Shown: piece after piece, positions 55 to 23,646 of the stretch
Layout: each line of letters opens with the position of its first letter
How positions within the stretch are numbered: the stretch's first letter is position 1
NCBI GenBank assembly: GCA_035357435.1
Contig: DAOPNM010000001.1
Coordinates: 1-32,000 of the forward strand
DNA: 32,000 nucleotides
From: an archaeon
Lineage (GTDB): Archaea; Iainarchaeota; Iainarchaeia; Iainarchaeales; CSSED10-239
Direction: 5' to 3'
Made by a program: the position numbers and the translations under genes
The notes under the pieces: generated by a model
Seen by the model: only the letters and a program-made list of their open reading frames with translations
Told to the model about the DNA's origin: nothing
Database searches by the model: none

Positions 55-67
55 ATTTCTTGGACAC
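55..67 (+). repeat. Copy 1 of the ATTTCTTGGACAC motif, followed by T6
   Basis: Exact 13-mer read directly from the sequence. It lies 52 nt after a TGA at positions 1-3, which may be the stop of a + strand gene ending at the window edge. It forms a 14-bp inverted repeat with copy 2. Confidence 0.6.
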
Positions 68-133
68 TTTTTTCTCACTTATTATTAGTTAATATTAAGA
101 AAAAATAATATATCCAAAAACAGTGGTTTCAGG

Positions 134-146
134 GTGTCCAAGAAAT
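134..146 (-). repeat. Copy 2 of the ATTTCTTGGACAC motif (reads in sense on the minus strand)
   Basis: Plus strand reads GTGTCCAAGAAAT, the exact reverse complement of the motif. It lies 71 nt downstream of the stop of the minus-strand pilin gene. Confidence 0.6.
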
Positions 147-216
147 ATTGTTTTAAGTTATACATTAAATAACAACAAAGTTATAAAATCACCTAAAGTG
201 CAAAAAAAAAGAATAA

Positions 217-405
217 TTATTGTGTTGCTTGATTAGTAATTGCCTCTGCTTCCCTTGTGTGTTTTGCAGATAACTGTTTTACATAGATTGCAACACTTAA
301 TGCAACTAAAATAACTATACCAATAATTATAACAAACTCTAAAGACACTTGTGCCTTTTCATCTTTTAAAAATAATTTTATTTTTTTTAACATGTTTAAC
401 ACCAT
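217..405 (-). CDS. Minimal archaeal type IV pilin (class III signal peptide, Flp-sized)
   Basis: 62-aa ORF. The segment ...KDEKA|QVSLEFVIIIGIVILVALSVAIYV has a short basic leader, Q at +1, E at +5 and a ~20-aa hydrophobic helix. The predicted mature peptide is only ~44 aa. It is the last gene of the pilus operon. The true start could be the internal Met (MLKKIK...). Confidence 0.75.
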   Translation of the reverse strand: MVLNMLKKIKLFLKDEKAQVSLEFVIIIGIVILVALSVAIYVKQLSAKHTREAEAITNQATQ

Positions 406-438
406 TAATTTTTACACTATTCTTTTTTTTCTAACACT

Positions 439-1356
439 CTATACAATCCCTAATAATAACCCAGAAATTAATGTTTGAGACAAACTATATATTGCATAAG
501 ACACCCCTAGCATAACTGGGAAGTAAATAAAAATACCTGTAAGGTTTCCATCTCTCATTATACAGATCATTGCTGCAGCAGCAAATGTTAAAACTATTAA
601 ATAGATATCTAATAACATAAAAATAACTTTCTGTGCTTCAATAGATGTCGAAATAATCTCACCAGTAACTACACCTGCACTAGATGCAACGTTTGTTAAA
701 AACTCAGTAAGTACATGTGTAATTCCAAAAATAAATGGTGCAACAACAGCACCTGTTGCAGCAATAAATATTACTTGCATCATTGTTTTTGTTTGTCTTT
801 CTTTTTTTATTCTAAACATATTTTTTGCATCATCTGCAATGTCTTCTAGTGTTTCTGCTAATTGGGCACCACTTATTAATGCTTCTTTTATAATAGTAAT
901 TGTTCTTCTTATTGTTTTAGAATCTATTGTATCAGACAAATAAGACAATGCATCTTGCATAGTGTACCCCATTTCTAACCGTCTAACCATTTCTGTTATT
1001 TGGAGAGATAATGGCCCAAAATCTGCAGAAGCAACTTCTCTTAATGAGAAATCAAAAGAAGAACCTGCCTTCATACTGTCTGCAATTAATTTTAAAGCAT
1101 CAGGCCAATTTTTTTCAATTTTGTTAATAGTTTGCCTATATACAAAAATAGGAACACCAATACCTAAATCTAGAATAATTATAAATACTAAAATTCCAAT
1201 CATTACTGTGTTAGATACCAAATATACAAGTAAACCCAAAATTAAGGAAAATATTAAAAATATTAATATCCAATAAAGTGCAGGTATCTTTATTTTAATT
1301 GAAGAAAGATATATCTGATATTTGTTTAGTAATTTATTTTGCGTAGTATCTTTCAT
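439..1356 (-). CDS. Type IV pilus platform protein, half-size T2SSF domain (TadC/EpdK/FlaJ-like)
   Basis: 305 aa with N- and C-terminal TM helices flanking a soluble helical domain (WPDALKLIADSMKAGSSFDFSLREVA...LEMGYTMQDAL) typical of GspF/TadC/FlaJ. Operonic with the ATPase. Confidence 0.7.
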   Translation of the reverse strand: MKDTTQNKLLNKYQIYLSSIKIKIPALYWILIFLIFSLILGLLVYLVSNTVMIGILVFIIILDLGIGVPIFVYRQTINKIEKNWPDALKLIADSMKAGSSFDFSLREVASADFGPLSLQITEMVRRLEMGYTMQDALSYLSDTIDSKTIRRTITIIKEALISGAQLAETLEDIADDAKNMFRIKKERQTKTMMQVIFIAATGAVVAPFIFGITHVLTEFLTNVASSAGVVTGEIISTSIEAQKVIFMLLDIYLIVLTFAAAAMICIMRDGNLTGIFIYFPVMLGVSYAIYSLSQTLISGLLLGIV

Positions 1357-1391
1357 ATTTTCACTTTATTTTTCACATTATTTCTTTTAAA

Positions 1392-2543
1392 TTAAATTTT
1401 TGGTTCAATAGATTTTATATAATATATTAAAAATGCAAATATTGCAGGTAATGCTATTAGGAAAATAATTTCCATAATTGTTGTAGAAACCATGCCTTGT
1501 AAAAACATGGTGCCTCCTTGACCTAATGGGGCATTTGCTATTCCCCCCAAAATTGCAACAAACACAGGCATAACAATTGCAACAAAAATAAAAATTATTC
1601 CAAAAAAATTCATTTTTTCTCCAAATCCTCTTACTGCTTCCATAAGATCAAAAGAAACACTATCTGCAACACTGTTTATTGTTTCTGCTAAATTACCACC
1701 AGTGTTTAGTGTTCTTACAATATGAGAAATTGCAATATTAAAACTTTTTGATTGACTTCTTAATGCTGCACGTCTTAATGCAGTTCGTGTATCTGTCCCA
1801 TGATCTATTTCTAATACAATCCTACTCATTTCATCCGAAAGCACACCATAATCATTTTGGGCAATAGATTGAAGAACTTTATACAACCCCATTCCTGCTT
1901 GTAGTTCTGTTGCTAAATGTCTTAAGGCATATGGTAGTTCTGTATCAATTTCTTTTCCTCTTTTTTTAGCTTTAGACATTGGGACTAAATAAGCATATAT
2001 GAATATGAAAAAGAATATACTAAGTATAAAAATAACAGGTATTAATAATAAAAAAATCGGTTTATAAAATGTAAACAAAATAAATAAACCAATAGATATG
2101 GCAGCAGAAGTAATTAGTGAAAAAATTATAGAAAATATTAAATGTTGTAATAATGTTTTCTTTATGTTTGCTGAATATAAATAAAACGAAATTTTTTTAC
2201 CTAATGGATTTTTTAAAATAAACGATGCAAACTTATTAATTATATTCTTAAAAGGATGATACAGTTTTACAACCCTTGCCTCTGTTGGGGATTCAGTACC
2301 TGTTATAAGCTTAGAGTTAGTATCTATATCTAAGGTTGCCAGTTTTCCTTCAGAAATAATATCCCTTAGTTCTCTTAAGTGTTCTTCAATTACAGGTTTG
2401 CCTATCCCTTTTGATTCATCTTGTTTTTTTAATTTAGAAACAATTGATTCAACTGCATCAACATCTATTTCTCGCCCTTCTCTTATATTATCTGATTTTT
2501 TATCAGTTCCAGATTTGAGTTGATCTAATTTAGAGGATGCCAT
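1392..2543 (-). CDS. Type IV pilus platform protein, half-size T2SSF domain (TadB/EpdJ/FlaJ-like) with a ~100-aa hydrophilic N-terminal extension
   Basis: 383 aa. TM helices plus a T2SSF-like domain (LPYALRHLATELQAGMGLYKVLQSIA...HGTDTRTALRRAA). Sits between the ATPase and the second platform gene. Confidence 0.7.
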   Translation of the reverse strand: MASSKLDQLKSGTDKKSDNIREGREIDVDAVESIVSKLKKQDESKGIGKPVIEEHLRELRDIISEGKLATLDIDTNSKLITGTESPTEARVVKLYHPFKNIINKFASFILKNPLGKKISFYLYSANIKKTLLQHLIFSIIFSLITSAAISIGLFILFTFYKPIFLLLIPVIFILSIFFFIFIYAYLVPMSKAKKRGKEIDTELPYALRHLATELQAGMGLYKVLQSIAQNDYGVLSDEMSRIVLEIDHGTDTRTALRRAALRSQSKSFNIAISHIVRTLNTGGNLAETINSVADSVSFDLMEAVRGFGEKMNFFGIIFIFVAIVMPVFVAILGGIANAPLGQGGTMFLQGMVSTTIMEIIFLIALPAIFAFLIYYIKSIEPKI

Positions 2544-2554
2544 TTTTTCTCAAT

Positions 2555-4396
2555 TTATTTTGGTAAATATTCCTTTTGTATAATTTTTGAAACATCTGTT
2601 AAACTTCTTATGTTGTTTTCTACCATATTTTTTAAAACATTTGTTCTTCTAATAATTAATTCATTTAATTCTGAATCAGACAATTTAGAAAATGCTTTTA
2701 CTTTTTCTAAAAATTCCATTGGTGCCTTTGTTCTTTCTATTCTATCAGTTCTTGGGTTCCATGCAAACAATTCCACAATCTTTGGTGACCCCTCAATAAC
2801 TCCTGTAACTTCTGAAATAGAAGTTATTTTTCTTATTAAGCCTTTAGGGGTATTTATTTTTTTCATAACAAATATTAAATCTAAACCTGCTAACATTAAC
2901 TGAGGAACATCCATTGGTGGAGAGGTTAAACGAACAATGGTTTCAGGTGCTGTGTTTGCATGGATTGTACCCATACATCCATCATGACCTGTGTTCATTG
3001 CAGTAAGTAATGTGAATGCCTCTTGGTGTCTTACTTCCCCAACAATTATTCTATCTGGTCTCATTCTTAAAGCGTTTTTTGTAAGAATGTCCATTGTGAG
3101 CTCGCCTTTTCCTTCTAACCCTGGGGGTCTTGCTTCAAATCTAATTACTTGCTTTATTGGTAATCTTAATTCTGCAGTATCTTCTATTGTCAACACTCTT
3201 TCTCTTTCTGGAACAAACGAAGCACACACATTCAAAAAAGTAGTTTTACCAGAACTTGTTCCACCTGAAATTAAAATGTTTGCTGGTTTTGCACCACCAA
3301 ATCCCTCTACTGCACACCATATAAATCCTGCAACGTCTATGTCAATTGTTCTTAAGTTAATTAAATCAATTATGGAATATGGATCTTGTCTAAACTTTCT
3401 GATTGTAATAGTGCTTCCATCTACAGATGCAGGTGGAATTGTAGCATTCACTCTTGAACCATCAGGCAATCTTGCATCTAAAAGAGGAGAGGCCATATCT
3501 ACTCTTCTACCAATAGACCTTGCAATTTTATCAATAATTTCATAAATTTCATCATTAGAGAAATAAACTATGTTTGTTGCCATCATACCAAAGTCAGAAT
3601 GATAAACATATACTGGCTTTCCTGCACAAACAACCATTATATCTTCTAATTTATCGTCATTTAATAATGGTTCTAAAGCACCATAACCAACCATCTCTTT
3701 TACAACTGCATCTGCATAAAAATCAAAAAGATGTTTAGGAATATTTATTTCTGGTGCACTTTCTAAAATATCAATTATTTTTTGATAGTAAATGTTTTTT
3801 CTCTGTATTGGATCCCTTATTTTATAAGGATCTACTGCAATTAACCTTGTTGCAGCTTCTTTCAAAGTATTAATAATCAATTTTTGACTAGGTGTTGGTT
3901 TTGGGATTGGCACTCTATAAAATAAAGTTGCTTGCCCTTCTATTCTATAAATTTCAGTATCACCATATTTTGTTAATAATGTTGCCTTTCCTTGTTTAAC
4001 TAATTCATCTATATTAAAAACAGAAGAATCATCTTTTGAAGAGTGTGTTTCTTTAGATGCTTGAGATGTGGGAAATGAAGTCACAGAAACATCTTTTAAA
4101 GGTTCTTGTTTAATTGGTGTTGCAACTGTTTGTTTAATAGAATTAATTTCTTGCATAAGTTTTGCTAAATCTGGTTGTGAAGAAGTAGAAGATTGTGTTG
4201 GCTGTGATGTGGCAACTGTTGATTGTGGAAATGAATTTTGAGAAGATATTGGTTCTTGAGGTTGTAAAGAACTAATAGAAGCATACTTTGACTTTATTTC
4301 TTGTGATGGTGACACAACAGAAATATTGCCTTGTGCCTGTGACTCTTTTTCTTTTGCAAACTTTTTTAATAGTTCTTCAAATGTTTCTTCAGCCAT
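2555..4396 (-). CDS. Type II/IV secretion-family assembly ATPase (FlaI/TadA/EpdL-like)
   Basis: 613 aa. Walker A is GGTSSGKTT, Walker B region is DRIIVGEVR, followed by TGHDGCMGTIHAN (His box), all as in GspE/VirB11/FlaI ATPases. The N-terminal ~135 aa is a low-complexity S/T/Q/P-rich tract. Confidence 0.9.
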   Translation of the reverse strand: MAEETFEELLKKFAKEKESQAQGNISVVSPSQEIKSKYASISSLQPQEPISSQNSFPQSTVATSQPTQSSTSSQPDLAKLMQEINSIKQTVATPIKQEPLKDVSVTSFPTSQASKETHSSKDDSSVFNIDELVKQGKATLLTKYGDTEIYRIEGQATLFYRVPIPKPTPSQKLIINTLKEAATRLIAVDPYKIRDPIQRKNIYYQKIIDILESAPEINIPKHLFDFYADAVVKEMVGYGALEPLLNDDKLEDIMVVCAGKPVYVYHSDFGMMATNIVYFSNDEIYEIIDKIARSIGRRVDMASPLLDARLPDGSRVNATIPPASVDGSTITIRKFRQDPYSIIDLINLRTIDIDVAGFIWCAVEGFGGAKPANILISGGTSSGKTTFLNVCASFVPERERVLTIEDTAELRLPIKQVIRFEARPPGLEGKGELTMDILTKNALRMRPDRIIVGEVRHQEAFTLLTAMNTGHDGCMGTIHANTAPETIVRLTSPPMDVPQLMLAGLDLIFVMKKINTPKGLIRKITSISEVTGVIEGSPKIVELFAWNPRTDRIERTKAPMEFLEKVKAFSKLSDSELNELIIRRTNVLKNMVENNIRSLTDVSKIIQKEYLPK

Positions 4397-4420
4397 ACAT
4401 AGTCACTATATTTCTCCATA

Positions 4421-5395
4421 TTAGTTTAAATTTAATAAAATTATTTGGGATAAAAGAGCTTGCAATTGAATTCTATCATTTGCACCCTCAACTAATCTAA
4501 AATTAATTTCAGCAATTGCATCAATTATTTTTATTTTCTTTTGAATATTAAGTTCTGTGTCTGGAAACTCAATCACACGCTTATATATTTGAGAAATTAT
4601 GTCTTCTCCAGAAAGACCATAATCTAAAAATAAGCTATCTAGTTTCTTTTTTGCACCATCAAAATCATTATTTAAACAAGCTTCAATTAAACTAATTACT
4701 TCTTTTGGTTGCACAGCACTTGCAACTTCATAAATTGTTTCTTTTTTTATATGTGGACTTGTTGCAGAAGCTGCCTGTAAATAATTAATTGCACTTCTTA
4801 AATCGCCTTCACATACATCACAAATACTTTCAATTGCTTCTTTGTCTATTTCTAGGTGTTCTTGTAAAACAATTTCATTTATTTTTTGAGTAATATCTTC
4901 TTTTTTTAAAGGTTTAAATTTAAATAATGCACATCTACTTTGGATAGGAGAAATTATTTTAGAAGCATAATTTACACTTAAAATAAACCTAACAGTTCCA
5001 GTATACTTCTCCATGGTTCTTCTTAACGCTTGTTGAGCATCTGTTGTTAAAGCATCAGCTTCATCTAAAAATATAATTTTAAAATCTGCACCTAATGGAA
5101 TTGTTCTTGAAAAATCTTTTATGACACCTCTTACAACATTAATTCCTCTTTCATCAGAGGCATTTAACTCTAAAAAATCTTGTGAAAAGGTGTCTCCAAA
5201 CAACTCCCTTGCAAGAGCAACAGCACATACTGTTTTTCCTACACCTGGTGGCCCTGAAAAAAGCATATTAGGTATACTTCTTTTTTGTAAATAAGTTTGT
5301 AATCTTGGAACAATATGCTTCTGACCAATAACTTTATCTAATGCTTTTGGTCTATACTTTTCAACCCAAGGAAAATTTTCTTCTTTTGTGGCCAT
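4421..5395 (-). CDS. rfcS: Replication factor C small subunit
   Basis: Contains PWVEKYRP, Walker A GPPGVGKT, LDEADALT and the SRC motif (IQSRCALFKF). I prefer the start at MATKEE (5395) to the track's upstream Met at 5437, because RFC-S homologues begin just before the WVEKYRP motif. Confidence 0.92.
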   Translation of the reverse strand: MATKEENFPWVEKYRPKALDKVIGQKHIVPRLQTYLQKRSIPNMLFSGPPGVGKTVCAVALARELFGDTFSQDFLELNASDERGINVVRGVIKDFSRTIPLGADFKIIFLDEADALTTDAQQALRRTMEKYTGTVRFILSVNYASKIISPIQSRCALFKFKPLKKEDITQKINEIVLQEHLEIDKEAIESICDVCEGDLRSAINYLQAASATSPHIKKETIYEVASAVQPKEVISLIEACLNNDFDGAKKKLDSLFLDYGLSGEDIISQIYKRVIEFPDTELNIQKKIKIIDAIAEINFRLVEGANDRIQLQALLSQIILLNLN

Positions 5396-5500
5396 AGTTA
5401 TACATATTTCCAATTTACTATAAAAATAATCTTCCAATATATTTATAAAGGTGATTTATAAGATAATATATAATAAATTAAAAAAACAAAAGATGAGAAA

Positions 5501-5917
5501 ATGGCATTTAAAATAAAACTTGATAAAAAAGGAATATTATGGTTTATAGTTTCATATATAATATCCCAAGCATTAATTTGGTGGTTATCAAAAGACAATT
5601 TTTTTAAATCACCAATGTATATATTATTGCCAATTGTTGGCTTCTTTGCATTATATTATTTTACAAAACCAATAACAGAATTTGCAAATTTAAAAAAAAC
5701 AAATTTTTTAATAATATTTACAATTGTTGGGATAATTGGATTTATTGTTGCTATTTATTTTTACTATTGGAATTATGCAATATTAAATAATTTAGGGACA
5801 ATGGAAATTATGAAATATTCCATAGGGACACATCCAATATTCAAAGGATTTATAACCTCTGCATATCTAGAATTTCTAATAAGTGGGATAATTGGAATTC
5901 TTGCTGCAAAGAAATAA
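5501..5917 (+). CDS. Hypothetical small integral membrane protein (~4 TM)
   Basis: 138-aa ORF with four hydrophobic stretches and no recognisable family. Confidence 0.5.
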   Translation: MAFKIKLDKKGILWFIVSYIISQALIWWLSKDNFFKSPMYILLPIVGFFALYYFTKPITEFANLKKTNFLIIFTIVGIIGFIVAIYFYYWNYAILNNLGTMEIMKYSIGTHPIFKGFITSAYLEFLISGIIGILAAKK

Positions 5918-5948
5918 ATGGTAAAAAGAACTAACAAAATAGATTAAT

Positions 5949-7178
5949 GTGTTCAAAATATTCATAAAAACATTTGGATGTACATTAAACCAAAGAGATT
6001 CTGAAGAGATAATAAAGAACGTTAATTATACAACTGATGAAAAAGAAATAACAAAAGCAAACTATATTATAATTAATACTTGTGGTGTAAAGGAACAAAC
6101 AGAACACAAAATTATAAACTATTTAAACAAACTAAAACAAAAAAACATCCTAGAGTCTAAAATAATTATCTGTGGATGTCTTGTAGACATCAACCCTCAA
6201 ATTCTTAAAAATATATTTCCAAATGCGAACTATTTTAAAACAAATCAAATTAATGAAATAAACAAACTTTTTTTAAAAAAAAAACAAATTAAACAAAAAC
6301 AGAAATCAAAACTCACAAAAATAGTAAAGATTTCAAATGGCTGTTTAGGTGATTGCAATTATTGTGCAGTTAAATTTGCAAGAGGAAAATTAAAAAGTAG
6401 AAATCCAAAAGAAATAATTGATGAAATAAAGGAAGCTATAAACAGTGGTGCAAAAGAAATTTATCTTACTGCACAAGATACAGGATGTTATGGATTAGAC
6501 ATAAATACAAACATTGTAGAACTACTTAACCTAATTTTAAAAACAAAAGGGGACTTTAAGATAAGATTAGGCATGGGAAATCCACAATTTTTTATAAAAT
6601 ACTATAAAGAGCTTGGAGAGATTTTAAAAAATAAAAAAATGTACAAATTCATTCATATACCATTACAAAGTGGAGACAAAGAAGTTTTAAAAAAAATGAA
6701 TAGATATTATACACCAGAAGAATGGATGTTTTTAGTAAACTATTTTAGAAAAACTCTAAAAAACATAACAATTGCAACAGATATTATTGTGGGATATCCT
6801 GAAGAAACACAAGAACAATATAATAATACATTAAAGTTAATACAAAAAACAAAACCCGACATAATAAATATTTCTAGATTTGGAAGAAGGCCTGGGATAA
6901 AGGCAAATCAATTTAATGACATTAAAGGGGTAATAAAAAAACAAAGATCACGTGAACTAACAGAACTTTCAAACAAAATATCTTTAGAAAATAATTTAAA
7001 ATACATAGGAAGAATAAAAAGAACATTAATAACAGAGATAGGCAAAGGATGTTATATTGGGAGAACACAAGAATATAAGCCAGTTGTAGTTTATGAAAAA
7101 ACAAAAATTGGAGAAACTTTAAAAATAAAAATAATTGATGCAAAACCACACTATTTAATTGGAAAAACTAGTAAATAA
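5949..7178 (+). CDS. Radical-SAM methylthiotransferase, archaeal/eukaryotic MtaB (CDKAL1)-type
   Basis: N-terminal UPF0004 domain (FIKTFGCTLNQRDSE), radical SAM CxxxCxxC (CLGDCNYC) and a C-terminal TRAM-like segment (GETLKIKIIDAKPHYLIG). Uses a GTG start. Confidence 0.85.
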   Translation: MFKIFIKTFGCTLNQRDSEEIIKNVNYTTDEKEITKANYIIINTCGVKEQTEHKIINYLNKLKQKNILESKIIICGCLVDINPQILKNIFPNANYFKTNQINEINKLFLKKKQIKQKQKSKLTKIVKISNGCLGDCNYCAVKFARGKLKSRNPKEIIDEIKEAINSGAKEIYLTAQDTGCYGLDINTNIVELLNLILKTKGDFKIRLGMGNPQFFIKYYKELGEILKNKKMYKFIHIPLQSGDKEVLKKMNRYYTPEEWMFLVNYFRKTLKNITIATDIIVGYPEETQEQYNNTLKLIQKTKPDIINISRFGRRPGIKANQFNDIKGVIKKQRSRELTELSNKISLENNLKYIGRIKRTLITEIGKGCYIGRTQEYKPVVVYEKTKIGETLKIKIIDAKPHYLIGKTSK

Positions 7179-7183
7179 ACACC

Positions 7184-7196
7184 ATTTCTTGGACAC
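7184..7196 (+). repeat. Copy 3 of the ATTTCTTGGACAC motif, followed by TCTTTTTCTT
   Basis: Exact 13-mer starting 6 nt after the methylthiotransferase TAA stop (7176-7178). No inverted partner is present before glmS. Confidence 0.6.
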
Positions 7197-7318
7197 TCTT
7201 TTTCTTACAAGTTTTTAATAATTACAAAAACAAAAAATTATTTAAAACACACATAAATTAATAGCATTTGTAATTCTAAAAAAACAATTTATAAATCCTT
7301 TTTATAATAATTATAAGT

Positions 7319-9163
7319 ATGTGTGGGATTGTAGGATATATTGGAAAACAAAATGCAATACCTATTTTGATTAATGGTTTGTATAGGTTAGAATATAGAG
7401 GATATGATTCATGTGGTATTAGCATAATTGCAAATAATTCAATAAAAACAATAAAAACAAATGGTAAAATTTCTGTTTTAGAAAATAAGTTAAAAAATAT
7501 AAACTTATATTCAAATATAGGTATTGCCCATACAAGATGGGCAACACATGGTGCACCAAATGAAAAAAATGCACACCCCCATTCTGATTGTAAAAATTCT
7601 ATTGTTATTGCCCATAATGGGATTATTGAAAACTATGATTCTTTAAAAAAATTATTAAGTAAAGAAGGCCATAAATTTACAAGTGACACAGATTCTGAAG
7701 TTATAGCTCATCTTATTGAGAAATTTTATAAAGGAGATTTACTTGAAGCAGTTACTAGTGCATTATCAGAAGTTGTTGGATCATATGGTTTACTTGTTAT
7801 GCACAAAGATAAACAAGAACTGATTGGTGCAAGGAAAGGATCACCACTTGTTTTTGGGATAAATAAGATTAAGAAGGAATATTTTATTGCATCTGATGTT
7901 TCAGCAATAATAGAGCATACCAATAAAGTTATATATTTGGAAGATAATGAAATTGTAGATGTTACAAATAAAGGATATAAAATAATTAATTTGAAAGAGA
8001 CCCATAAAAAAGTAAATAAAGAAATTGAAGAAATAAAATATACATTGGATCAAATAGAAAAAGGAGGGTATAAGCATTTCATGCTTAAAGAAATATTTGA
8101 ACAACAAGATACAGTTGTACAGGCATTAGCAGGAAGAATTGATTTTAAAAAATTAGATGCAAAATTAGGCGGTTTAGAAACCACATTAAGTGATGATAAT
8201 ATAAAAAAACTAAAAAGAATAATAATTATTGGATGCGGGTCATCTTGGCATGCAGGGCTTGTATCTAAATATGTTCTTGAGAAGTATACAAAAATTCCTG
8301 TTGATGTAGAATATGCAAGTGAGTTTAGATATGGGTATCCAATAATTGATAAAGATACACTTGTAATTGCTATTTCTCAATCAGGAGAAACAATAGACAC
8401 ATTAGCCGCACTAAGGAAAGCAAAAGAGCTAAATGGGAAAACCTTTGGCATCGTGAATGTTGTTGGATCCACAATATCAAGAGAAACAGATTGTGGGATT
8501 TATACAAGAGCAGGGCCAGAAATAGGTGTCGCCTCAACAAAAGCATTTACAAATCAATTAGTTTGTATGTATCTTTTAACATTATATATTGCAAAAAGAA
8601 AAAAAACAATGGGTGATAATGAAATAAAGGAATTTATTTCAGATTTAATGAAATTACCAGAATATATTAAACAAACTTTGAAAAAATATAATCAAATAAA
8701 AATTATTGCAAAGAAGATGTCTAAAACAAAAAATTGTATTTTTTTAGGGAGAGGTATAAATTATCCTATTGCCTTGGAAGGTGCATTAAAACTAAAAGAA
8801 ATTAGTTATATACATGCAGAAGGTTATCCTGCTGCAGAAATGAAACACGGGCCTATTGCTTTAATAGACAAGCATATGCCTGTTATTGTTATTGTAAATA
8901 AAGATAAAAACTATGAAAAAGTTATTTCAAATATAAATGAAATTAAGGCAAGAGGTGGGAAGATTGTGGCAATTGCAACACAGGGGGATATTAAAATTAA
9001 AAAGATATCAGATCAGGTATTGTACGTCCCAAAAGTGCCACCATTACTAAATCCTTTTGTAAATGTTGTTGTTCTCCAACTTCTTGCATATTATGTTGCA
9101 GACGAAAAGAAATGTGAAATTGATAAACCAAGAAATTTAGCAAAATCTGTAACAGTAGAGTAA
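7319..9163 (+). CDS. glmS: Glutamine--fructose-6-phosphate aminotransferase (isomerising)
   Basis: N-terminal nucleophile MCGIVGY, two SIS domains (GCGSSWHAG; GRGINYPIALEGALKLKE) and the canonical C-terminus ...LAKSVTVE. Confidence 0.95.
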   Translation: MCGIVGYIGKQNAIPILINGLYRLEYRGYDSCGISIIANNSIKTIKTNGKISVLENKLKNINLYSNIGIAHTRWATHGAPNEKNAHPHSDCKNSIVIAHNGIIENYDSLKKLLSKEGHKFTSDTDSEVIAHLIEKFYKGDLLEAVTSALSEVVGSYGLLVMHKDKQELIGARKGSPLVFGINKIKKEYFIASDVSAIIEHTNKVIYLEDNEIVDVTNKGYKIINLKETHKKVNKEIEEIKYTLDQIEKGGYKHFMLKEIFEQQDTVVQALAGRIDFKKLDAKLGGLETTLSDDNIKKLKRIIIIGCGSSWHAGLVSKYVLEKYTKIPVDVEYASEFRYGYPIIDKDTLVIAISQSGETIDTLAALRKAKELNGKTFGIVNVVGSTISRETDCGIYTRAGPEIGVASTKAFTNQLVCMYLLTLYIAKRKKTMGDNEIKEFISDLMKLPEYIKQTLKKYNQIKIIAKKMSKTKNCIFLGRGINYPIALEGALKLKEISYIHAEGYPAAEMKHGPIALIDKHMPVIVIVNKDKNYEKVISNINEIKARGGKIVAIATQGDIKIKKISDQVLYVPKVPPLLNPFVNVVVLQLLAYYVADEKKCEIDKPRNLAKSVTVE

Positions 9164-9276
9164 AATAACAAAAATTGGATTAAATGTTTTAAATCTTATT
9201 TTAACCATCCCTAGATGTTAAATATTTAAACCATTTGTTATATTTTATATATGTAAATCTATTTTAAAAATGAAAA

Positions 9277-10002: not shown

Positions 10003-10005
10003 GTA

Positions 10006-10476: not shown

Positions 10477-10487
10477 TATTGAATAAT

Positions 10488-12569: not shown

Positions 12570-12581
12570 GCAAAATTTTTT

Positions 12582-12595
12582 AAATCTTGGTACAT
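12582..12595 (+). repeat. Degenerate copy of the 3'-end motif (AAATCTTGGTACAT, then CTCTTTTTT)
   Basis: Begins 13 nt after the topA stop. It shares the AAATCTTGG..ACA core with the variant at 23634-23646 and the downstream CTCTTTTT with copy 3. It has a one-base insertion relative to the consensus. Confidence 0.4.
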
Positions 12596-12664
12596 CTCTT
12601 TTTTATTTTTTGTGCTCGTTTATATACTTATAAAAGTTTTTTAAATAAAAAAATGTGATTAATT

Positions 12665-14860
12665 ATGGAAAAAGCAATATTAACAATAAAAGAAACAAAC
12701 ATACAAGATGTTGGAAAAGGAATTGCAAAGATAGACCCATTAGTTTTTGAAAAATTAAAATTAAGTACAGGAGATGTTATAAAAATACAAGGAACAAAAA
12801 CAGCATTAGCGTATGTTGTTAAAGGTAAAATTGAAGATACTGGTATGAATGTAATTAGAATAGATGGCGGGATAAGATATAATGCAGGGGCGTCTATTGG
12901 AGAAGAAGTCACAATAGAAAAAACAAACACATTGCCTGCACAAACAGTAAATCTTTCACCTGTAATTGATAAAAATTCAAAAATTGAATTAAGTGAAGAT
13001 ATTAAAGCTTATATTAAGGAAAGGTTAATAAATTTAAATGTTATAGAAAACAATATTGTAAAAATACATGGCCTACCTATTTTAACACCTGATGGTTATA
13101 GAGACCTACAATTGCTTGTAACAAAAACATTGCCAAAAGGCGCAGTAAAAATAACAGAGGATACAAAATTGATTATATCTGAAAAAGCAGAAGAAGTTTT
13201 TAAAGCAAGTATTACTTATGATGATGTTGGTGGTTTAAAAAAAGAAATAGAAGCAATTAGAGAAATGGTAGAATTGCCTATTAAAAGACCAGAGATTTTT
13301 AAAAAATTAGGAATATCTCCACCTAAAGGAGTTTTATTGTATGGGCCACCAGGCACAGGAAAAACATTACTTGCAAAAGCAGTTGCTGGAGAAACAGATT
13401 CTCATTTTATTACAATTAATGGCCCAGAAATTGTAAGTGGAGTTTATGGGAAAAGTGAAGAAAATTTAAGAAACATTTTTAAAGAAGCAGAAGAAAAGGC
13501 ACCAACAATAATTTTTATAGATGAAATTGATGCCATTGCACCAAAAAGAGAAAACATTTATGGAGAAACTGAAAAAAGAATTGTTGCACAATTGTTAACA
13601 TTAATGGATGGATTGAACACAAGAGGAAATGTAGTAGTGATTGGTGCAACAAACATCCCAGATGCAGTAGATCCTGCATTAAGAAGACCTGGAAGATTTG
13701 ATAGAGAATTAGAAATTATGGTTCCAGATAAAGAAGGGAGAAAGGAAATATTGTTAATACATACAAGAGGTATGCCATTAAAAGATGTAAACATTGATGA
13801 ACTTGTAGAACTAACCAATGGCTTTTCTGGTGCAGATTTAAATATGCTTTGTAAGGAGGCCGCACTAAAAGCAATAAAAAGATTAATGCCTAAAATAAAT
13901 AAAGAAACTGGAAAACATTTATCAAGAGAAATCATGGATGAACTAGTAATAACACATCAAGATTTTTTAGATGCATTAAACCTCGTTGAACCATCAGCAC
14001 TTAGAGAAGTACAAGTAGAAATACCTAATGTGAAATGGGAAGATATTGGTGGATTAGAAGAACAAAAACAACAACTTAAAGAAATGGTTGAATGGCCTTT
14101 AAAATATGGAGATGTTTTTAAAAAAATAGGAATCACCTCACCAAGAGGTGTTTTATTGTATGGCCCACCAGGCACAGGAAAAACATTACTTGCAAAAGCA
14201 GTTGCTACAAACTCTAATGCAAATTTTATACCTGTTAAAGGTCCAGAATTACTTAATAAATATGTTGGAGAAAGCGAAAGGAGAGTAAGAGAGATATTCA
14301 AAAAAGCAAGGCAATTAGCACCATCAATCATATTTTTCGATGAAGTAGATGCATTAACAAGAACAAGATTTGCAGGAGATACAACAAACGCAGAAAATAA
14401 TGTTGTTGCACAGATTTTAACAGAAATGGATGGTATTTCACAACTAAAAGATATAATAATTATAGGTGCAACAAATAGAAAAGATATGATAGACCCTGCA
14501 TTTTTAAGACCAGGAAGATTCGATATATTATTACCAATACCATTGCCAGATGAAAAAACCAGAGAAAAAATTTTTGAAGTTTATCTTAAAAAATTAAATG
14601 TAGAACAAAACATCTCAGCAAAAGAATTAAGTAAATTAACACCAGAGGCATCAGGTGCAGAAATAGAAGCTATATGTAGAGAAGCAGGAATGTATGCAAT
14701 AAGAAAAATAATATCTGAAAAAGAAGGAAAACTAAAAGAAGAGAAGAACATAAAAATTACAAAAGAAGACTTCAAAAAAGCAATAGATAAAATTTTAAAA
14801 AAGGAAAAACAAACAAAAGAAAAAGGAAGTCAAGATAAAACAAATAAAAGTATTGTTTAA
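12665..14860 (+). CDS. cdc48: CDC48/VCP-type AAA+ ATPase (two AAA domains)
   Basis: CDC48 N-domain ([25 protein letters not shown]), two Walker A motifs (GPPGTGKT), Walker B motifs IIFIDEIDA and IIFFDEVDA, and SRH regions. Confidence 0.95.
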
Positions 14861-14880
14861 AAAGAACAAAATAACACGTT

Positions 14881-14893
14881 ATTTCTTGGACAT
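14881..14893 (+). repeat. Copy 4 of the motif (ATTTCTTGGACAT, 12/13)
   Basis: Begins 21 nt after the cdc48 TAA stop. It is the inverted partner of copy 5, 73 bp away. Confidence 0.55.
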
Positions 14894-14966
14894 GATTATA
14901 ATTATATATAATTAAATAATACTAAAAAAGAAAATATAAGATAATTTCCAAAATAGCAATATAGTT

Positions 14967-14979
14967 GTGTCCAAGAAAT
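14967..14979 (-). repeat. Copy 5 of the ATTTCTTGGACAC motif (sense on the minus strand)
   Basis: Plus strand reads GTGTCCAAGAAAT, an exact reverse complement. It lies downstream of the minus-strand csp gene (176 nt from its stop). Confidence 0.55.
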
Positions 14980-15154
14980 CTTGCTTTTTGTTTGTTTTAG
15001 ACAGATAAAATAATTATAGTTTAATAGATGTTGCCTGATAACACCCACATAATAATAGCATGTTAAATAAATTAAAAAAAATAAAGAAAAAAAGAAATCT
15101 ATAAATAGATAAAAATAAAAAAATAAGAAAAAGAATTAACAAATTTAGAAAAAA

Positions 15155-15346
15155 TTAAATGACTTTAACTTTTACTGCTTTTGCTCCTCTTTCATCATTT
15201 GTAACTTCAAAAGATACTTTTGTACCTTCTTTTACATTAGATTTATTTTCTAAACCTGATTCATGTACAAAATAATCTTTGCCATCTGTTCCAGTTATGA
15301 AACCAAATCTTTTTTTGAAGTTATAAAATTTTATTGTGCCTTCCAT
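15155..15346 (-). CDS. csp: Cold-shock domain protein (bacterial CspA-type)
   Basis: 63 aa. MEGTIKFYNFKKRFGFITGTDGKDYFVHESGL contains RNP1-like (K/R)FGFI and RNP2-like YFVH motifs. Length is typical of single-CSD proteins. Confidence 0.88.
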   Translation of the reverse strand: MEGTIKFYNFKKRFGFITGTDGKDYFVHESGLENKSNVKEGTKVSFEVTNDERGAKAVKVKVI

Positions 15347-15469
15347 TTTTGTATCACTTTGTTATTTTTTACTATTGTTTTGTTTTTGTATTTGTATGAT
15401 TGTGTTTTGCCAATAGTTGTATATATATAAATAACAATAATATTATAAATGGATTGGATCACAAAAAAA

Positions 15470-17113
15470 TTATTTGCTTGATGAAAAATTAGATTTTATT
15501 TGTGTTAAGAATTCAATAAATAATGGATGAGGGTATAGCAGTTTTGATTTTAATTCTGGATGGGATTGCGTAGCAATGAAAAAAGGATGATCTTTTAGTT
15601 CTATAAATTCTACTAACGCACCATCAGGGCTAGTACCACTAATGATTAATCCATTTTTTTCTAATACTGAATGGTATTTGGGGTTTACTTCATATCTGTG
15701 TCTATGTCTTTCACTTATTTTTTGTGAGTTATAAATTTGCATAATTTTTGTACCATCTTTTAAAATTATGTCATATGCCCCCAATCTCATAGTACCACCT
15801 AGTTCTTTTTGTTTTTGATTTGGTAAGATGTCTATTACTGGATAAGGGGTATTTGGATCAATCTCAGTAGTGTTTGCATCTTTTAAACCACATACATTTC
15901 TTGCATATTCTACAATTGCCAATTGTAAACCATAACATAATCCTAAAAAAGGAATTTTGTTTTCTCTTGCATATTTTATAGCATTGATTTTCCCATCTAC
16001 GCCTCTTGATCCATATCCACCAGGAACAATAATTCCATTTAATTTTTTTAGTTGATCAGAAGTTATTTGTGCAGCATCAATATATTCAATATCTATTGGG
16101 CAATTGCAAACTGCAGAGGCATGTGTTAGTGCTTCTGTTATAGATACATATGAATCTTTTAAGGTGGTATATTTCCCACATATTCCTATTTTTAGTTTGC
16201 CTGTATTTTTGTTTAGTTCATTTATTTTATTTATTTTATCAATATATTTTTGAATATTTTTGTTTGGTTGAATATTAAGTTTCTCACAAACAATTTTGTC
16301 TAAATTTTGTTGTTTAAAGATAATTGGGATTTCATAGATGTTGTCAGTGTCAATTCCAGAAATAATATGATTTTCATCTAATTGTGAAACAATAGATAGT
16401 TTTTCTTTTGCTTGTTTGTTAAGATATCTATGTGTTCTACAAATAATTATGTCAGGTTTTATTCCTCTTCGAAATAATTCTTCTAAGGCATTTTGTGCAG
16501 GTTTTGTTTTTTGTTCTTCACTTTTGTATAGTTCTGGAATATAGGTTATATGAATGTTGATTATGTTCCCATCTTGTTTTTGTATAATGTTTTTTATAGC
16601 GTAAATAAATAGTTCATTTTCAATATCTCCAATAGTCCCACCAATTTCAAGAAGAACAATGTCTGCGTTGTTGTCTATTGTAGTTTTTAATATTTTATAT
16701 TCTATATAGTCACTAACTTCTGGAATAAGCTTTACTGTTTTTCCAAGAAATTCGCCTTTTCTTTCTAAGTCAATTATTTCTTTATAGATTCTACCCATGG
16801 TAATATTTTCATCTTTATGACAAGAGATATTCAGAAATCTTTCATAATGCCCAAAATCCATATCTACTTCTGTCCCATCATCAAGAACAAATACTTCTCC
16901 GTGTTCTATAGGGTTCATTGTCCCTGGGTCAAAATTAAGGTATCCATCACATTTTATAGGAAATTTTTTTAATGTATCATCAACTAACAAACCAACACTT
17001 GCAAGAGCTACACCTTTTCCTAATCCTGATAAAACTCCACCAGTAACAACAATAAATTTTGTATTTTTGTCATGTATTTGCTTATGAAGTTCATTTAGTT
17101 GATCACGATACAT
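15470..17113 (-). CDS. pyrG: CTP synthase
   Basis: N-terminal synthetase motif VTGGVLSGLGKG, GATase domain with GLCYGLQ (catalytic Cys), and HRHRYEVN. Confidence 0.95.
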   Translation of the reverse strand: MYRDQLNELHKQIHDKNTKFIVVTGGVLSGLGKGVALASVGLLVDDTLKKFPIKCDGYLNFDPGTMNPIEHGEVFVLDDGTEVDMDFGHYERFLNISCHKDENITMGRIYKEIIDLERKGEFLGKTVKLIPEVSDYIEYKILKTTIDNNADIVLLEIGGTIGDIENELFIYAIKNIIQKQDGNIINIHITYIPELYKSEEQKTKPAQNALEELFRRGIKPDIIICRTHRYLNKQAKEKLSIVSQLDENHIISGIDTDNIYEIPIIFKQQNLDKIVCEKLNIQPNKNIQKYIDKINKINELNKNTGKLKIGICGKYTTLKDSYVSITEALTHASAVCNCPIDIEYIDAAQITSDQLKKLNGIIVPGGYGSRGVDGKINAIKYARENKIPFLGLCYGLQLAIVEYARNVCGLKDANTTEIDPNTPYPVIDILPNQKQKELGGTMRLGAYDIILKDGTKIMQIYNSQKISERHRHRYEVNPKYHSVLEKNGLIISGTSPDGALVEFIELKDHPFFIATQSHPELKSKLLYPHPLFIEFLTQIKSNFSSSK

Positions 17114-17118
17114 ATTAT

Positions 17119-17176
17119 CATCTTTTTTTATTTTTTATTTAAATGTGCATCTTTTTTTATTTTTTATTTAAATGTG
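17119..17176. repeat. Perfect 2 x 29-bp tandem duplication (CATCTTTTTTTATTTTTTATTTAAATGTG)
   Basis: Units 17119-17147 and 17148-17176 are identical base for base. Unit 2 contains the last two codons and the stop of nrdJ. On the minus strand each unit carries TTTAAATA. Unit 1 ends 6 nt upstream of the pyrG ATG. Confidence 0.9.
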
Positions 17177-20526: not shown

Positions 20527-21372
20527 ATGCAACAAAATAATTCAGAACTTATAAAAAAATTTATTAATGAACTTAATATTGAAGGATATAGCCAAAAAAC
20601 AATTGAAACATATTCAATGTATTTGAGATTGTTTGAAGAATTTATTAAAAAAGATTTAAAAGAAGTAATATCTGACGATATATTAAATTATTTATCATAT
20701 ATAAAAACTGAAAAGAAAGCAAGTTCTGCTACAATTAATTTAATTTTATCTATTTTTAAACATTTTTATAATTCTTTTTTAAAAAGTGATTTAGATATAA
20801 ATATAAAACTTCCAAAAATTCCAAAAAAGATTCCAATAGTTTTAACATCAAAAGAAATTTCTCAACTTTTAGATGCTGTTGATAATGAAAGAGATAGATT
20901 AATTATTGAGTTTATTTATTCTACAGGTGTAAGAGTTTCAGAATGTATTAATATGAAAATAAAGAATATTAATTTTGATGAGTTTACTGGGAATGTAATT
21001 AGCGGGAAAGGAAATAAAGATAGAATTATTATTATATCTAAAAAATGGGCAGAAGATTATAAAAGATATTTAGAAAAAAGAAATAAAAGAATAGATAGTG
21101 AATATTTGTTTACAAATAATATTGGCGGAAAATTATCACCAGATACAATACAAAAATTTCTAAAAGGGTATGCAAAAAAAGCAAATTTAAATAAAAATGT
21201 TACACCACATACCTTACGGCATTCTTTTGCAACAAGCCTTTTGGAACATGAAGTTAATATAAGGTATATACAACAGTTATTAGGGCACGCTAATTTAAAT
21301 ACAACACAAATATATACAAAAGTTAATACTGATCAATTAAAAAAAATAGAAAATCCATTAGATAAATTATAG
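20527..21372 (+). CDS. xerA: Tyrosine recombinase, XerA/XerC/XerD family
   Basis: 281 aa. N-terminal SAM-like core-binding domain (EGYSQKTIETYSMYLRLFEEF). Catalytic residues are present: STGVRVSE (Arg), HTLRHSFAT (HxxR) and LGHANLNTTQIYTKV (His and the Tyr nucleophile). Confidence 0.88.
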   Translation: MQQNNSELIKKFINELNIEGYSQKTIETYSMYLRLFEEFIKKDLKEVISDDILNYLSYIKTEKKASSATINLILSIFKHFYNSFLKSDLDINIKLPKIPKKIPIVLTSKEISQLLDAVDNERDRLIIEFIYSTGVRVSECINMKIKNINFDEFTGNVISGKGNKDRIIIISKKWAEDYKRYLEKRNKRIDSEYLFTNNIGGKLSPDTIQKFLKGYAKKANLNKNVTPHTLRHSFATSLLEHEVNIRYIQQLLGHANLNTTQIYTKVNTDQLKKIENPLDKL

Positions 21373-21922: not shown

Positions 21923-21943
21923 AAGAATAATTCTTTCATTTTT
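21920..21943 (+). terminator. Hairpin plus T5: a 19-nt perfect palindrome TGAAAGAATAATTCTTTCA followed by TTTTT
   Basis: The palindrome overlaps the TGA stop of the PRC-barrel gene and is followed directly by a T5 run, giving the geometry of an intrinsic terminator. Confidence 0.5.
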
Positions 21944-22070
21944 CCTAATTCTTTAATTTAAATTTTTATATCGTTTACTTATTTTATAATTTATTTAATT
22001 AAAAGATATATTTATAAATAAATACATACATAATATAATTATACATAAGCAAATTATAATTATAAATATA

Positions 22071-22095
22071 AATAATACAAGAAGTGTAGGGTCTA
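22071..22095. repeat. Right arm of the 25-bp imperfect inverted repeat (AATAATACAAGAAGTGTAGGGTCTA)
   Basis: Reverse complement matches 21374-21398 at 21/25. Its last base is the A of the ATG of the ORF at 22095. Confidence 0.75.
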
Positions 22096-22712
22096 TGGTT
22101 AATAATAGTAAAAAAATAAAAGCTAATTTTGTAAAGTATAAGTTTAAATTTAATAATGATGTTAATAGAGTGTCTTATTTATATCAAAAGGTGTTTAGAT
22201 CTATTTATGGATATACACAAAATGTTACAAAGAGTGATAAAAAGGTATATATTTACTATAGAAAAGGGGTAGTTAGTGATATACCATATATTAAACAAAA
22301 CAAGAATACAATAATTTTACCAAAAGGTTATGAAAATAAGTTAATAGAATATTTTGAAACGGGTAAAAATCCTGCACATGATTGGAAAATAAAAGGAGAT
22401 TGGGGTATTGAGTATTCTATAGATGAAATAGAGGTTGATAGTAATTCTGTAATTAAAAGTTTAGAAGATCATATTCAAAGTCTTCAAATTATTGATTCTA
22501 AGAACAATTATGCAAAATTAGTTTCTGAAATTAATAATCTTTTAGATAATAATAGTTTAGATAATAATAATCAAGATTATATTAATTATATAAATGATAC
22601 AATACAAGGAATTATTAATAATGAGTGGTTTAAAGAGACCTATACAAATTCTGAAATTTTAAATGGATTTTATAATAATTATCAAAAATTTAAACAGAAA
22701 TATAATTTATAA
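22095..22712 (+). CDS. Hypothetical protein (ORFan, N/D-rich C-terminal half)
   Basis: 205-aa ORF with no family I recognise. The start codon abuts the right inverted-repeat arm. Confidence 0.45.
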   Translation: MVNNSKKIKANFVKYKFKFNNDVNRVSYLYQKVFRSIYGYTQNVTKSDKKVYIYYRKGVVSDIPYIKQNKNTIILPKGYENKLIEYFETGKNPAHDWKIKGDWGIEYSIDEIEVDSNSVIKSLEDHIQSLQIIDSKNNYAKLVSEINNLLDNNSLDNNNQDYINYINDTIQGIINNEWFKETYTNSEILNGFYNNYQKFKQKYNL

Positions 22713-22722
22713 TTTGTGTTTT

Positions 22723-23262
22723 TTATTTTTCTTTTTCATTATTTGTGTTAATTATTATTATGTTTTTTTTCCATGTCCTTTTTTTTCCTGTGTTATTTAT
22801 TTTAATTAAATTTATGTCTGTTAGTGTTTTTAAATAAGGATATAGACTTTTATCATTTAGATATTCTACATTGAATTGTAATTTTATGTTATGCTTTATT
22901 TCATCCATATCTATCCAACGATCTGTAGGTATTGATTTTATTATATGTTCTGCTTGTGTATTTTCTTTTATTTTTAGTATATCCCATATTGTTGTAATGC
23001 CTTGTTGATTTATTTCAAAAGAATCTATTATTTTAGTATTGTCAATCTTTTCATAATTTTGGATTAATTGGTTTTCTTTTTGATTTAATAAATTTTCTTG
23101 TTGAGTGTTGTTTTTGTTTTCTATTGCTTGTGTTGTTTGTGTATAGTAATTTGTTGAATTAATGTGTTGGATTTTTATATTATTGTTATCATTCTGTTCT
23201 TCTTTATTTTTATTTTTAGTAAATATGTTTAATATATTCTTGAAAAATACTTTAATTCCCAT
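22723..23262 (-). CDS. Hypothetical protein with a Q/N-rich N-terminal half and a possible winged-helix C-terminal domain
   Basis: 179-aa ORF. The C-terminal ~70 aa (DRWIDMDEIKHNIKLQF...SLYPYLKTLTDINLIKINNTGKKRTWKK) has the helix-helix-wing spacing of wHTH proteins. That reading is judged by eye only. Convergent with the ORF at 22095. Confidence 0.4.
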   Translation of the reverse strand: MGIKVFFKNILNIFTKNKNKEEQNDNNNIKIQHINSTNYYTQTTQAIENKNNTQQENLLNQKENQLIQNYEKIDNTKIIDSFEINQQGITTIWDILKIKENTQAEHIIKSIPTDRWIDMDEIKHNIKLQFNVEYLNDKSLYPYLKTLTDINLIKINNTGKKRTWKKNIIIINTNNEKEK

Positions 23263-23271
23263 ATTATATAA

Positions 23272-23382
23272 GTAATTACCGTAGTTATTTTAAACCTATC
23301 TGTAATTACTGTTATAACAATTGGCCTTTTTTGGTAATTACTGTAATTAAATTGGGTTTTTGTGTAGAGTATTAGTAATTAC
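23272..23382. promoter_or_regulatory. Array of palindromic GTAATTAC boxes (4 exact plus 1 variant)
   Basis: Exact copies are at 23272, 23302, 23334 and 23375; the variant GTAATTAA is at 23343. Centre-to-centre spacings are 30, 32 and 41 bp. The array begins 10 nt upstream of the ATG of the ORF at 22723-23262. A GTTATAAC palindrome also occurs at 23311. Confidence 0.6.
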
Positions 23383-23633
23383 TTAATGTTTCTGTTTTTA
23401 TTATATGGTATTATGTATATCTTGTTGTAATATTATTATTTTTTCAATATTTTTTTAATTTTTTTGTATCTTTTGGTGTCATATAATAGTACAAAAGAAG
23501 TAATTTTTTTGTTTTATTTTAGGTAAAGTGGTGTTTTTTTGTTTTCTTTTGTATTTAATACCTTTTTTTGCCCCAATTTTTGTAATATCCCTTGTTTTTT
23601 TCATATATTATAGTAAGTATTTATTAGATAATT

Positions 23634-23646
23634 GTGTCCAAGATTT
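23634..23646 (-). repeat. Variant copy of the 3'-end motif (minus strand reads AAATCTTGGACAC)
   Basis: Plus strand reads GTGTCCAAGATTT. It lies 26 nt downstream of the 3' end of tRNA-iMet on the same (minus) strand and matches the consensus at 11/13. Confidence 0.5.

Follow-up and report, generated by a model that had tools for sequence, protein, structure and literature searches.

The sites of the yeast Nrd1-Nab3-Sen1 (NNS) system (with UCUUG as the Nab3 site), the poxvirus U5NU signal and the T7 class II signal ATCTGTT are sequence-specific terminators, and Reb1, TTF-I and mTERF act as polar, DNA-bound roadblock terminators or insulators. We know of no archaeal factors homologous to those of the NNS, U5NU or T7 type, and of no roadblock system of the Reb1, TTF-I or mTERF type described in archaea; to our knowledge, archaeal termination is explained by oligo-U and the general factor aCPSF1/FttA, with no sequence-specific termination or boundary signal. 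Term-seq in M. maripaludis has shown that oligo-U terminators act with aCPSF1/FttA (PMC8716108, PMC7515710), and that the U-tracts are read by the KH domains of aCPSF1, no other conserved sequence having emerged from the motif analysis (PMC8716108). Here we analyse a 13-nt word, with the core TTCTTGGACA, that recurs just 3' of genes in a 32,000-nt stretch of DNA (positions 1 to 32,000 of contig DAOPNM010000001.1, assembly GCA_035357435.1; hereafter the window) from an AT-rich (~27% GC), Iainarchaeota/Diapherotrites-like DPANN archaeon. An earlier note, made from the sequence alone, had proposed this word as a 3'-end or termination signal and knew of no equivalent; our literature search agrees, no described sequence-specific 3'-flank word having been found for archaea or DPANN. 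The motif may be a sequence-specific boundary or terminator signal of a kind not previously described in archaea, a proposal that is unproven. In compact AT-rich DPANN genomes T-runs are ubiquitous and spacers short, and stopping the polymerase before a convergent gene or a promoter is therefore an open problem.

The earlier note had estimated that such a 13-mer would be far rarer by chance, and the statistics bear this out. Allowing at most one mismatch to ATTTCTTGGACAC, the window holds six matches (four exact and two with one mismatch) where 100 dinucleotide-preserving shuffles give an expectation of 0.07, and none of the 100 reaches six. The nine-base core TCTTGGACA occurs 7 times (0.21 expected), matches with at most two mismatches number 9 (1.37 expected), and when k-mers were surveyed without bias, sub-words of the motif came out near the top of the 10- to 12-mers for over-representation. 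In the window species the motif takes the form C-R-N-N-ATTTCTTGGACA-Y, with T-[C/G]-TTGGACA as the more general core; TTGGAC is unvarying across the 19 copies from which we derived a 17-nt weight matrix. This matrix scores true copies at 18-28 bits and everything else in the window species at 12.5 bits or less, and a scan of the motif-less 3' ends of that species found no degenerate copies above noise. All seven copies previously listed are present at their positions and strands. The claim that the copies are all intergenic holds for those seven; an eighth, within mutS, had been overlooked. The copies of the window are the following.

Positions 55 to 67, plus strand: exact ATTTCTTGGACAC, 52 nt past the stop of a gene with an MJ0043_C domain, T6 immediately next; left arm of convergent pair A.
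Positions 134 to 146, minus strand: exact ATTTCTTGGACAC, 71 nt past the stop of a class III-signal pilin gene (217-405, minus); right arm of pair A.
Positions 7184 to 7196, plus strand: exact ATTTCTTGGACAC, starting 6 nt past the stop of a MiaB-like methylthiotransferase gene.
Positions 12582 to 12595, plus strand: variant AAATCTTGGTACAT, with a one-base insertion, 13 nt past the topA stop.
Positions 14881 to 14893, plus strand: 12/13 copy with an ACAT ending, 21 nt past the cdc48 stop; left arm of convergent pair B.
Positions 14967 to 14979, minus strand: exact ATTTCTTGGACAC, 176 nt from the csp stop; right arm of pair B.
Positions 23634 to 23646, minus strand: variant AAATCTTGGACAC, its core 26 nt past the 3' end of a tRNA-Met (CAT) gene, beyond a T5 run.
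Positions 27203 to 27215, plus strand: 12/13 copy AATTCTTGGACAC, within mutS and in sense, encoding VILGH in a conserved MutS segment.

The gene assignments and distances given earlier hold, including a real gene that ends at the TGA of positions 1-3 and encodes a 425-aa protein with the MJ0043_C domain. The assignment of the 14967-14979 copy to csp is weak, because of its distance from the stop and the many T-runs in between (six runs of at least five T within the first 90 nt of the csp 3' flank). The mutS copy is uncertain as a member of the family and may be a coding coincidence. At 7184-7196, T5 begins 2 nt further on and glmS starts 123 nt downstream, while the 12582-12595 copy has T6 runs on both flanks and a separate TTTATATA box for cdc48 downstream of it. 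Beside the post-tRNA copy, a putative lysine-rich open reading frame (ORF) of 41 aa on the minus strand (23468-23593) starts 29 nt past the motif; many assemblies annotate it as a gene.

Placement relative to genes was surveyed in ~68 kb of the window species, which contain 10 copies, or ~1 copy per 7 kb. Nine of the 10 are intergenic, for an intergenic share of 8.6% of the sequence (P about 2e-9), and they are distributed among the spacer classes as follows.

Convergent spacers: 12, totalling 891 nt, with 5 copies.
Tandem spacers: 43, totalling 3377 nt, with 4 copies.
Divergent spacers: 13, totalling 1612 nt, with 0 copies.

Convergent spacers are enriched (P = 0.006 for at least 5 copies), and for every intergenic copy the gene on the 5' side is co-oriented (9/9 in the window species, P = 6e-4; 11/11 independent loci across species, orthologous sites being counted once, P = 1e-4). 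A promoter or operator would be expected in divergent and tandem spacers, not in convergent ones, and the spacer-class counts and orientation thus show the opposite of that prediction and the placement predicted for a gene-end element. The strand-specific placement 3' of genes, claimed from the window, recurs elsewhere on the contig, in the unselected 21 kb of L071, which were reached through a second TnpB copy and hold two motif copies, both intergenic and in sense.

L071, sense: ATTTCTTGGACAA, 37 nt past the stop of a 139-aa gene convergent with tRNA-Val.
L071, sense: ATTTCTTGGACAT, 10 nt past the stop of a class II aminoacyl-tRNA synthetase gene.

On the same contig, the ~6 kb preceding the window and the ~9 kb following it are free of copies. 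Two statements about junctions have to be corrected: the window has four convergent junctions and not two, the two without a motif having a spacer of at most 10 nt or an overlap, and tandem pairs do not as a rule carry one copy, the majority of the tandem junctions in the window carrying none.

We further compared seven related species via conserved topA synteny. TopA homologues carry the source names Diapherotrites, Iainarchaeum or 'ainarchaeum', and TopA of the closest other species is only ~65-67% identical to that of the window. The topA-to-cdc48 junction holds a copy in five species (the window species, L022, L073, L074 and L075), in a spacer the rest of which is unalignable. L022, L073 and L074, with TopA 81-86% identical mutually, form a clade sister to the window species, and their motif reads G-Y-TATATTT-[C/G]-TTGGACA-H, that is with a TATA-like GTTATATTT fused to its 5' side, an extension absent from the copies of the window species and L075. 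All three genomes have it at the same three orthologous junctions: 15-37 nt ahead of the cdc48 ATG; 15-66 nt past the dUTPase stop, followed by T4-T8 runs and, further downstream, by a separate TATA box and Shine-Dalgarno sequence for a kaiC-like gene; and in the final codons of an HD-domain gene, 22-25 nt ahead of the xerA ATG. The xerA gene carries the motif only where a co-directional HD gene lies upstream, the divergent spacer of the window species and L075 having none. In L075, from the other deep clade, copies lie 9 nt past the topA stop and 26 nt past tRNA-iMet, and the latter spacing is identical to that in the window despite a diverged trailer, with the next gene ~390 nt away. Across species the distance from the motif to the downstream ATG ranges from 15 to ~390 nt. 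Position 5 interchanges C and G even at orthologous sites, which argues against pairing with one fixed guide RNA and is compatible with protein recognition.

The conservation in relatives that the earlier note had suggested as a check is found at orthologous junctions in four of them (L022, L073, L074 and L075), but L023, L024 and L025 hold only 0-1 copies in 22 kb, and the element is dispensable on that account. The one strong match in L023 is the following.

L023, positions 20980 to 20996, minus strand: CATTACTTCTTGGACAC, 19.3 bits, in the last codons of cobO, in sense, ~49 nt before the start of the ribonucleotide reductase (RNR) gene.

Its arrangement mirrors the HD-xerA junction of the L022 clade. 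No alternative common word was found in the spacers of the motif-poor L023-L025. Overall, the element is old, conserved in position at some junctions, gained or lost at others, and dispensable in some lineages.

At a finer scale, among ~20 near-identical contigs, all the strains compared retain the same copies, and the copy at 7184-7196 is unvarying in 6 strain haplotypes. Polymorphism affects 2 of 92 motif positions as against ~2.7% elsewhere, with too few variable sites to gauge constraint. A hypervariable patch at window positions 54-132 (L002 vs L003, ~11,210-11,305) differs in 30 of 79 columns between identical flanks; its edges fall 1 nt before the plus-strand copy of pair A and 2 nt before the minus-strand copy, and the 10-nt core is unchanged inside it (P = 0.008). 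Such a patch may stem from the import of a short segment by recombination, or from hypermutation confined to the interval between the inverted copies.

The copies lie inside oligo-T terminator zones, with T-runs before and/or after them, and at 5 of 9 window-species copies the T-runs come first, separating the motif from the end of the preceding gene. No structure is predicted for single copies (z about 0), which fits recognition of the sequence rather than of a fold. The convergent pairs A and B are inverted repeats, and each is predicted to fold into a long hairpin in which a 13-bp stem closes a loop of 66-73 nt (z = -4 to -7); the repeat of pair A extends to ~21 nt with 2 mismatches. A shared RNA hairpin around the single copies was looked for and rejected, a CAAG...CTTG mini-stem being present in two copies only. 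The motif is not a bacterial intrinsic terminator, which would combine a U-run with a GC-rich hairpin whose loop measures 3-8 nt, 0 of 11 terminator-like hits in 1-16000 coinciding with it. From the plain archaeal U-tract class, which has 4-5 or more U just ahead of the transcript 3' end and needs nothing beyond U-richness, it departs in being defined by a conserved G/C-containing word.

The resemblance to the U-tract/aCPSF1 terminators lies in strand-specific placement just 3' of genes and non-coding RNAs within oligo-T zones, and the KH domains of that factor, in reading a short RNA sequence at the 3' end, resemble the proposed reader of the motif. The motif differs from U-tracts in being a specific word of 10-13 nt (up to ~20 nt) with G and C, in occurring at some ends only, and in having T-runs downstream of it at only some copies. 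With the NNS, U5NU and T7 class II signals it shares a short, non-hairpin, orientation-dependent form at the ends of units, but it is longer and confined to one lineage; that it contains UCUUG, the Nab3 word, we take to be a resemblance and not a test. As with the sites of Reb1, TTF-I and mTERF, we are dealing with an asymmetric double-stranded DNA site between units that is orientation-dependent and may adjoin the next promoter (L073, L074); the difference is that its binding protein is hypothetical, and that, placed between a TATA box and the start, it would in addition repress the gene that follows.

The uptake sequences of Neisseria and Pasteurellaceae often form inverted pairs in terminators, although most are not involved in terminators, and they occur ~1 per kb, at 1000+ per genome (PMC1852404). 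The motif resembles them as an over-represented 9-13 nt word with gene-end inverted pairs, dialects and a pilus-type machine nearby. It is, however, ~7x sparser, nearly always intergenic, strictly in sense and conserved in position across genera, with the arms of its pairs 66-73 nt apart, and an uptake sequence (DUS/USS, the DNA uptake sequence and uptake signal sequence) is disfavoured by density and orientation (10 copies in ~68 kb, 9/10 intergenic, all sense). With repetitive extragenic palindromes (REP), bacterial interspersed mosaic elements (BIME) and miniature inverted-repeat transposable elements (MITEs) the motif has in common an intergenic position, often in convergent spacers, and inverted pairs, but it occurs mostly as single non-palindromic copies, with no conserved interior, target duplication or gene for a REP-associated tyrosine transposase (RAYT). 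A mobile element had been named in advance as one alternative to look for; no longer conserved unit and no target-site duplications were found, and a MITE or REP element is rejected, the interiors of pairs A and B not being alignable beyond AT-richness and the copies being the same in all strains.

Our tentative interpretation, to which we would give slightly less than an even chance, is that the motif is a lineage-specific, polar boundary signal for the upstream unit, serving termination or 3'-end formation. Having transcribed beyond a gene or a tRNA, RNA polymerase would encounter the motif in sense orientation, and a hypothetical sequence-specific trans-factor would act there to promote termination or 3'-end formation. 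This factor might be a DNA-bound protein forming a polar roadblock; alternatively, it might be a protein or guide RNA able to recognise the nascent RNA and bring in aCPSF1/FttA. Beside the ordinary oligo-T tracts the motif would be an auxiliary or fail-safe signal, and would serve to insulate a convergent neighbour or the promoter that comes next. A boundary element of this sort fits the sense orientation, the convergent enrichment and divergent absence, the upstream co-directional gene, the tRNA spacing and the oligo-T zones, and it is from such patterns in the sequence that we infer an action on transcription ends, a reading at the level of DNA or RNA, and a factor. The motif is a concrete candidate signal and offers a handle toward its reader through affinity capture and phylogenetic profiling, and it would improve operon and 3'-end annotation in uncultivated genomes. 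One might go further and speculate that a family-level Iainarchaeota-like clade possesses, besides oligo-T, a factor-dependent polar terminator or insulator (TSTTGGACA) as a counterpart of NNS/Reb1-type termination, by which a 27%-GC genome full of T-runs could mark its real unit ends and protect convergent genes and downstream promoters, but this wider proposal we consider rather unlikely.

Several observations weigh against a boundary signal. The motif is present at only ~1/4 of transcription-unit ends, and many of the ends that lack it carry T5-T9 runs straight after the stop. Of the 20 non-coding copies of all species, only 7 have T5 or longer in the next 35 nt; the T-rich runs that had been said to follow several copies are not general, and T-runs often precede the motif. 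To these must be added its scarcity in L023, L024 and L025, and its position in the sister clade. The motif stops 15-19 nt short of the cdc48 ATG in L073 and L074; at cdc48 (L073/L074) and xerA (L022/L073/L074) its own 5' extension is the sole TATA-like sequence; and in L073 it stays beside cdc48 despite a PALP gene inserted between topA and cdc48. This sister-clade placement at cdc48 and xerA looks like that of a core promoter or operator. Because only ~1/4 of unit ends carry it, the motif is not a universal or general 3'-end signal and is at most an auxiliary one. The 3'-end or termination signal of the earlier note is thereby narrowed to a possible auxiliary signal at a subset of ends, and as such it is, though unproven, the best available reading of the pattern.

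Were the motif instead read in mRNA by an RNA-binding protein or a small RNA (sRNA), it could be an untranslated region (UTR) element that sets stability, processing or translation, with no role in termination. Such an element, which we consider unlikely, would be always in sense and almost always non-coding, as the motif is; its predicted lack of structure would make it accessible, archaeal sRNAs are reported to target 3' UTRs, and the sister-clade copies just upstream of start codons could be 5'-UTR sites. It accords poorly with the 0 copies in 13 divergent spacers, which contain 5' UTRs only, with the copies that follow a tRNA at conserved spacing, and with the strong T-runs before the motif at 5/9 copies, by which most transcripts may end earlier. 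The C/G interchange at position 5 is hard to square with one fixed guide RNA, and the DNA examined showed no gene for a complementary RNA, an Rfam search of the window having returned four tRNAs and no other family at gathering score. The geometry in L073 and L074 is the main argument for another rival, an operator or promoter-proximal site of a DNA-binding regulator whose regulon would include cdc48, xerA and the kaiC-like ATPase and whose orientation would follow the downstream gene. By our own count, with the TATA-to-start spacing assumed to be ~26 nt, the motif of L073 and L074 would have its own TATA-like extension on one side and, on the other, a start that coincides with the ATG or lies close to it, so that a terminator read in nascent RNA would not be transcribed by the polymerases that start from that promoter. 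With a TATA box before it and the expected start after it, TTGGACA would be in the classic position for an archaeal repressor, the fusion of G-Y-TATATTT to the motif is found in L022, L073 and L074 alike, its retention beside cdc48 in L073 suggests the same, and a C/G interchange at position 5 suits recognition of double-stranded DNA. The operator reading fails in the window species, where 5 of 9 copies lie in convergent spacers without a downstream gene and none in the 13 divergent ones, and where the 8 bp before CTTGG, such as CGCTATTT and CACCATTT, resemble a TATA box only poorly. Past the dUTPase gene, and again at the topA-cdc48 junction of the window, the motif is followed by a separate TATA box, the distance to the downstream start varies from 15 to ~390 nt while the upstream gene end is close, and spacing is kept relative to the 3' end of tRNA-iMet and not to the next gene. 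An operator is on balance even less probable than a UTR element; either of them would be among the first cis-regulatory words described for Iainarchaeota. A reverse-strand promoter, with AGAAA as the transcription factor B recognition element (BRE) and a TATA box, was rejected on inspection of the sequence, as it fits only the sister-clade copies with C at position 5.

It is very unlikely, in our view, that the motif is a DNA-level word unrelated to transcription, such as an uptake-like tag, a recombination hotspot, or a MITE or REP remnant that has survived in gene-end spacers. The convergent pairs are inverted repeats that could fold as long hairpins, the locus encodes a type IV pilus-like machine, the lineages have 'dialects' (C or G at position 5, and differing 5' extensions), the hypervariable patch that ends at the pair A copies suggests recombination, and the single intragenic copy sits in mutS. 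Against this stand a density of ~1 per 7 kb where uptake sequences have ~1 per kb, the intergenic position of nearly all copies where most uptake sequences are not involved in terminators, a strict sense orientation that is unexpected for an uptake tag, and positional conservation across species at ~65% TopA identity; the arms of the pairs, 66-73 nt apart, do not make tight hairpins, the interiors are unalignable and free of target duplications, and the ends of the TnpB element are unrelated. As for a chance or compositional artefact of an AT-rich genome, plain coding coincidences do occur, GATTTCTTGGACGC encoding DFLDA in cdc48 (L023, L025 and L075) and TTTGTTGGACAA encoding FVGQ in miaB. For the intergenic copies chance is refuted by the shuffle statistics (6 matches vs 0.07 expected) and by recurrence in L071 and at orthologous sites of four species, and we give it practically no weight.

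The window is nearly identical to part of contig JAKQRE010000998.1 (GCA_029563815.1). Pfam scans identified in it the archaeal genes for the RFC small subunit, TFE-alpha, aTrm56, Cdc48 and the class III-signal pilin, together with type IV pilus-like ATPase and platform proteins. They also found a bacterial-type csp (15155-15346) and a MutS/MutL pair (25305-29561) in this DPANN archaeon. Where csp and pyrG sit in the window, the relatives L022-L025 hold other genes (dUTPase, kaiC-like), which suggests lineage-specific gene turnover or horizontal acquisition. The pyrG-RNR spacer (window 17114-17167) shows indel polymorphism among strains, with 4 haplotypes.

Two other repeated words were observed in the window. 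Four occurrences of the palindrome GTAATTAC, set 30-41 bp apart (23272-23382), lie in an unusually long spacer of 408 nt directly upstream of a 179-aa gene (22723-23262, minus), and they look like an operator array for a putative regulator. TTCTTTTGCA/TGCAAAAGAA has 10 sites (for example at 4349, 6458, 11270, 19484 and 30170) where ~0.14 are expected, all in coding regions and on either strand; this excess is probably an effect of codon or amino-acid usage and not a signal.

A TnpB (IS605 OrfB/Cas12f-like) element at L001 ~12,620-14,090 is present or absent among strains, the site being empty in L003 and L004. Comparison of the filled site (L001) with the empty one (L003) gives inverted ends GTAACAGTTTATAA...TTATAAACTGTTAC and the target TTTATTT. 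A second copy, 90% identical, lies at 10001-11284 of L071 on the same contig. That the motif is the end or guide target of this insertion sequence was considered and rejected, the ends being unrelated and no motif with up to 3 mismatches lying nearby.

A scan for the convergent-pair pattern in a genome contig collection that lacked the source species gave 9 matches, all bacterial and about as many as estimated for chance. A broader pair-pattern scan of metagenome contigs returned mostly an unrelated palindromic MITE (~105 bp, from an organism of ~50% GC); only L051 belongs to the archaeon of the window, L042 and L045 contain short ORFs only, and the low-GC match L043 is a bacteriophage. This phage contig (terminase, sigma-70 factor, CHAP endolysin; 33% GC) carries at 3282-3382, adjoining a VRR-NUC gene, four direct copies of ATTATTTGTTGGACA at 22-bp spacing and one inverted copy, which look like iterons or operators; here the same word occurs in an unrelated system. 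The MITE-like family (L027, L032-L070, mostly from metagenome Ga0209358) consists of perfect palindromes of ~105 bp (ACTCCTCCCCATTTGTTGGACAATCTCCATTTCG...) in an organism of 45-58% GC, and was retrieved only because it contains ATTTGTTGGACAA.

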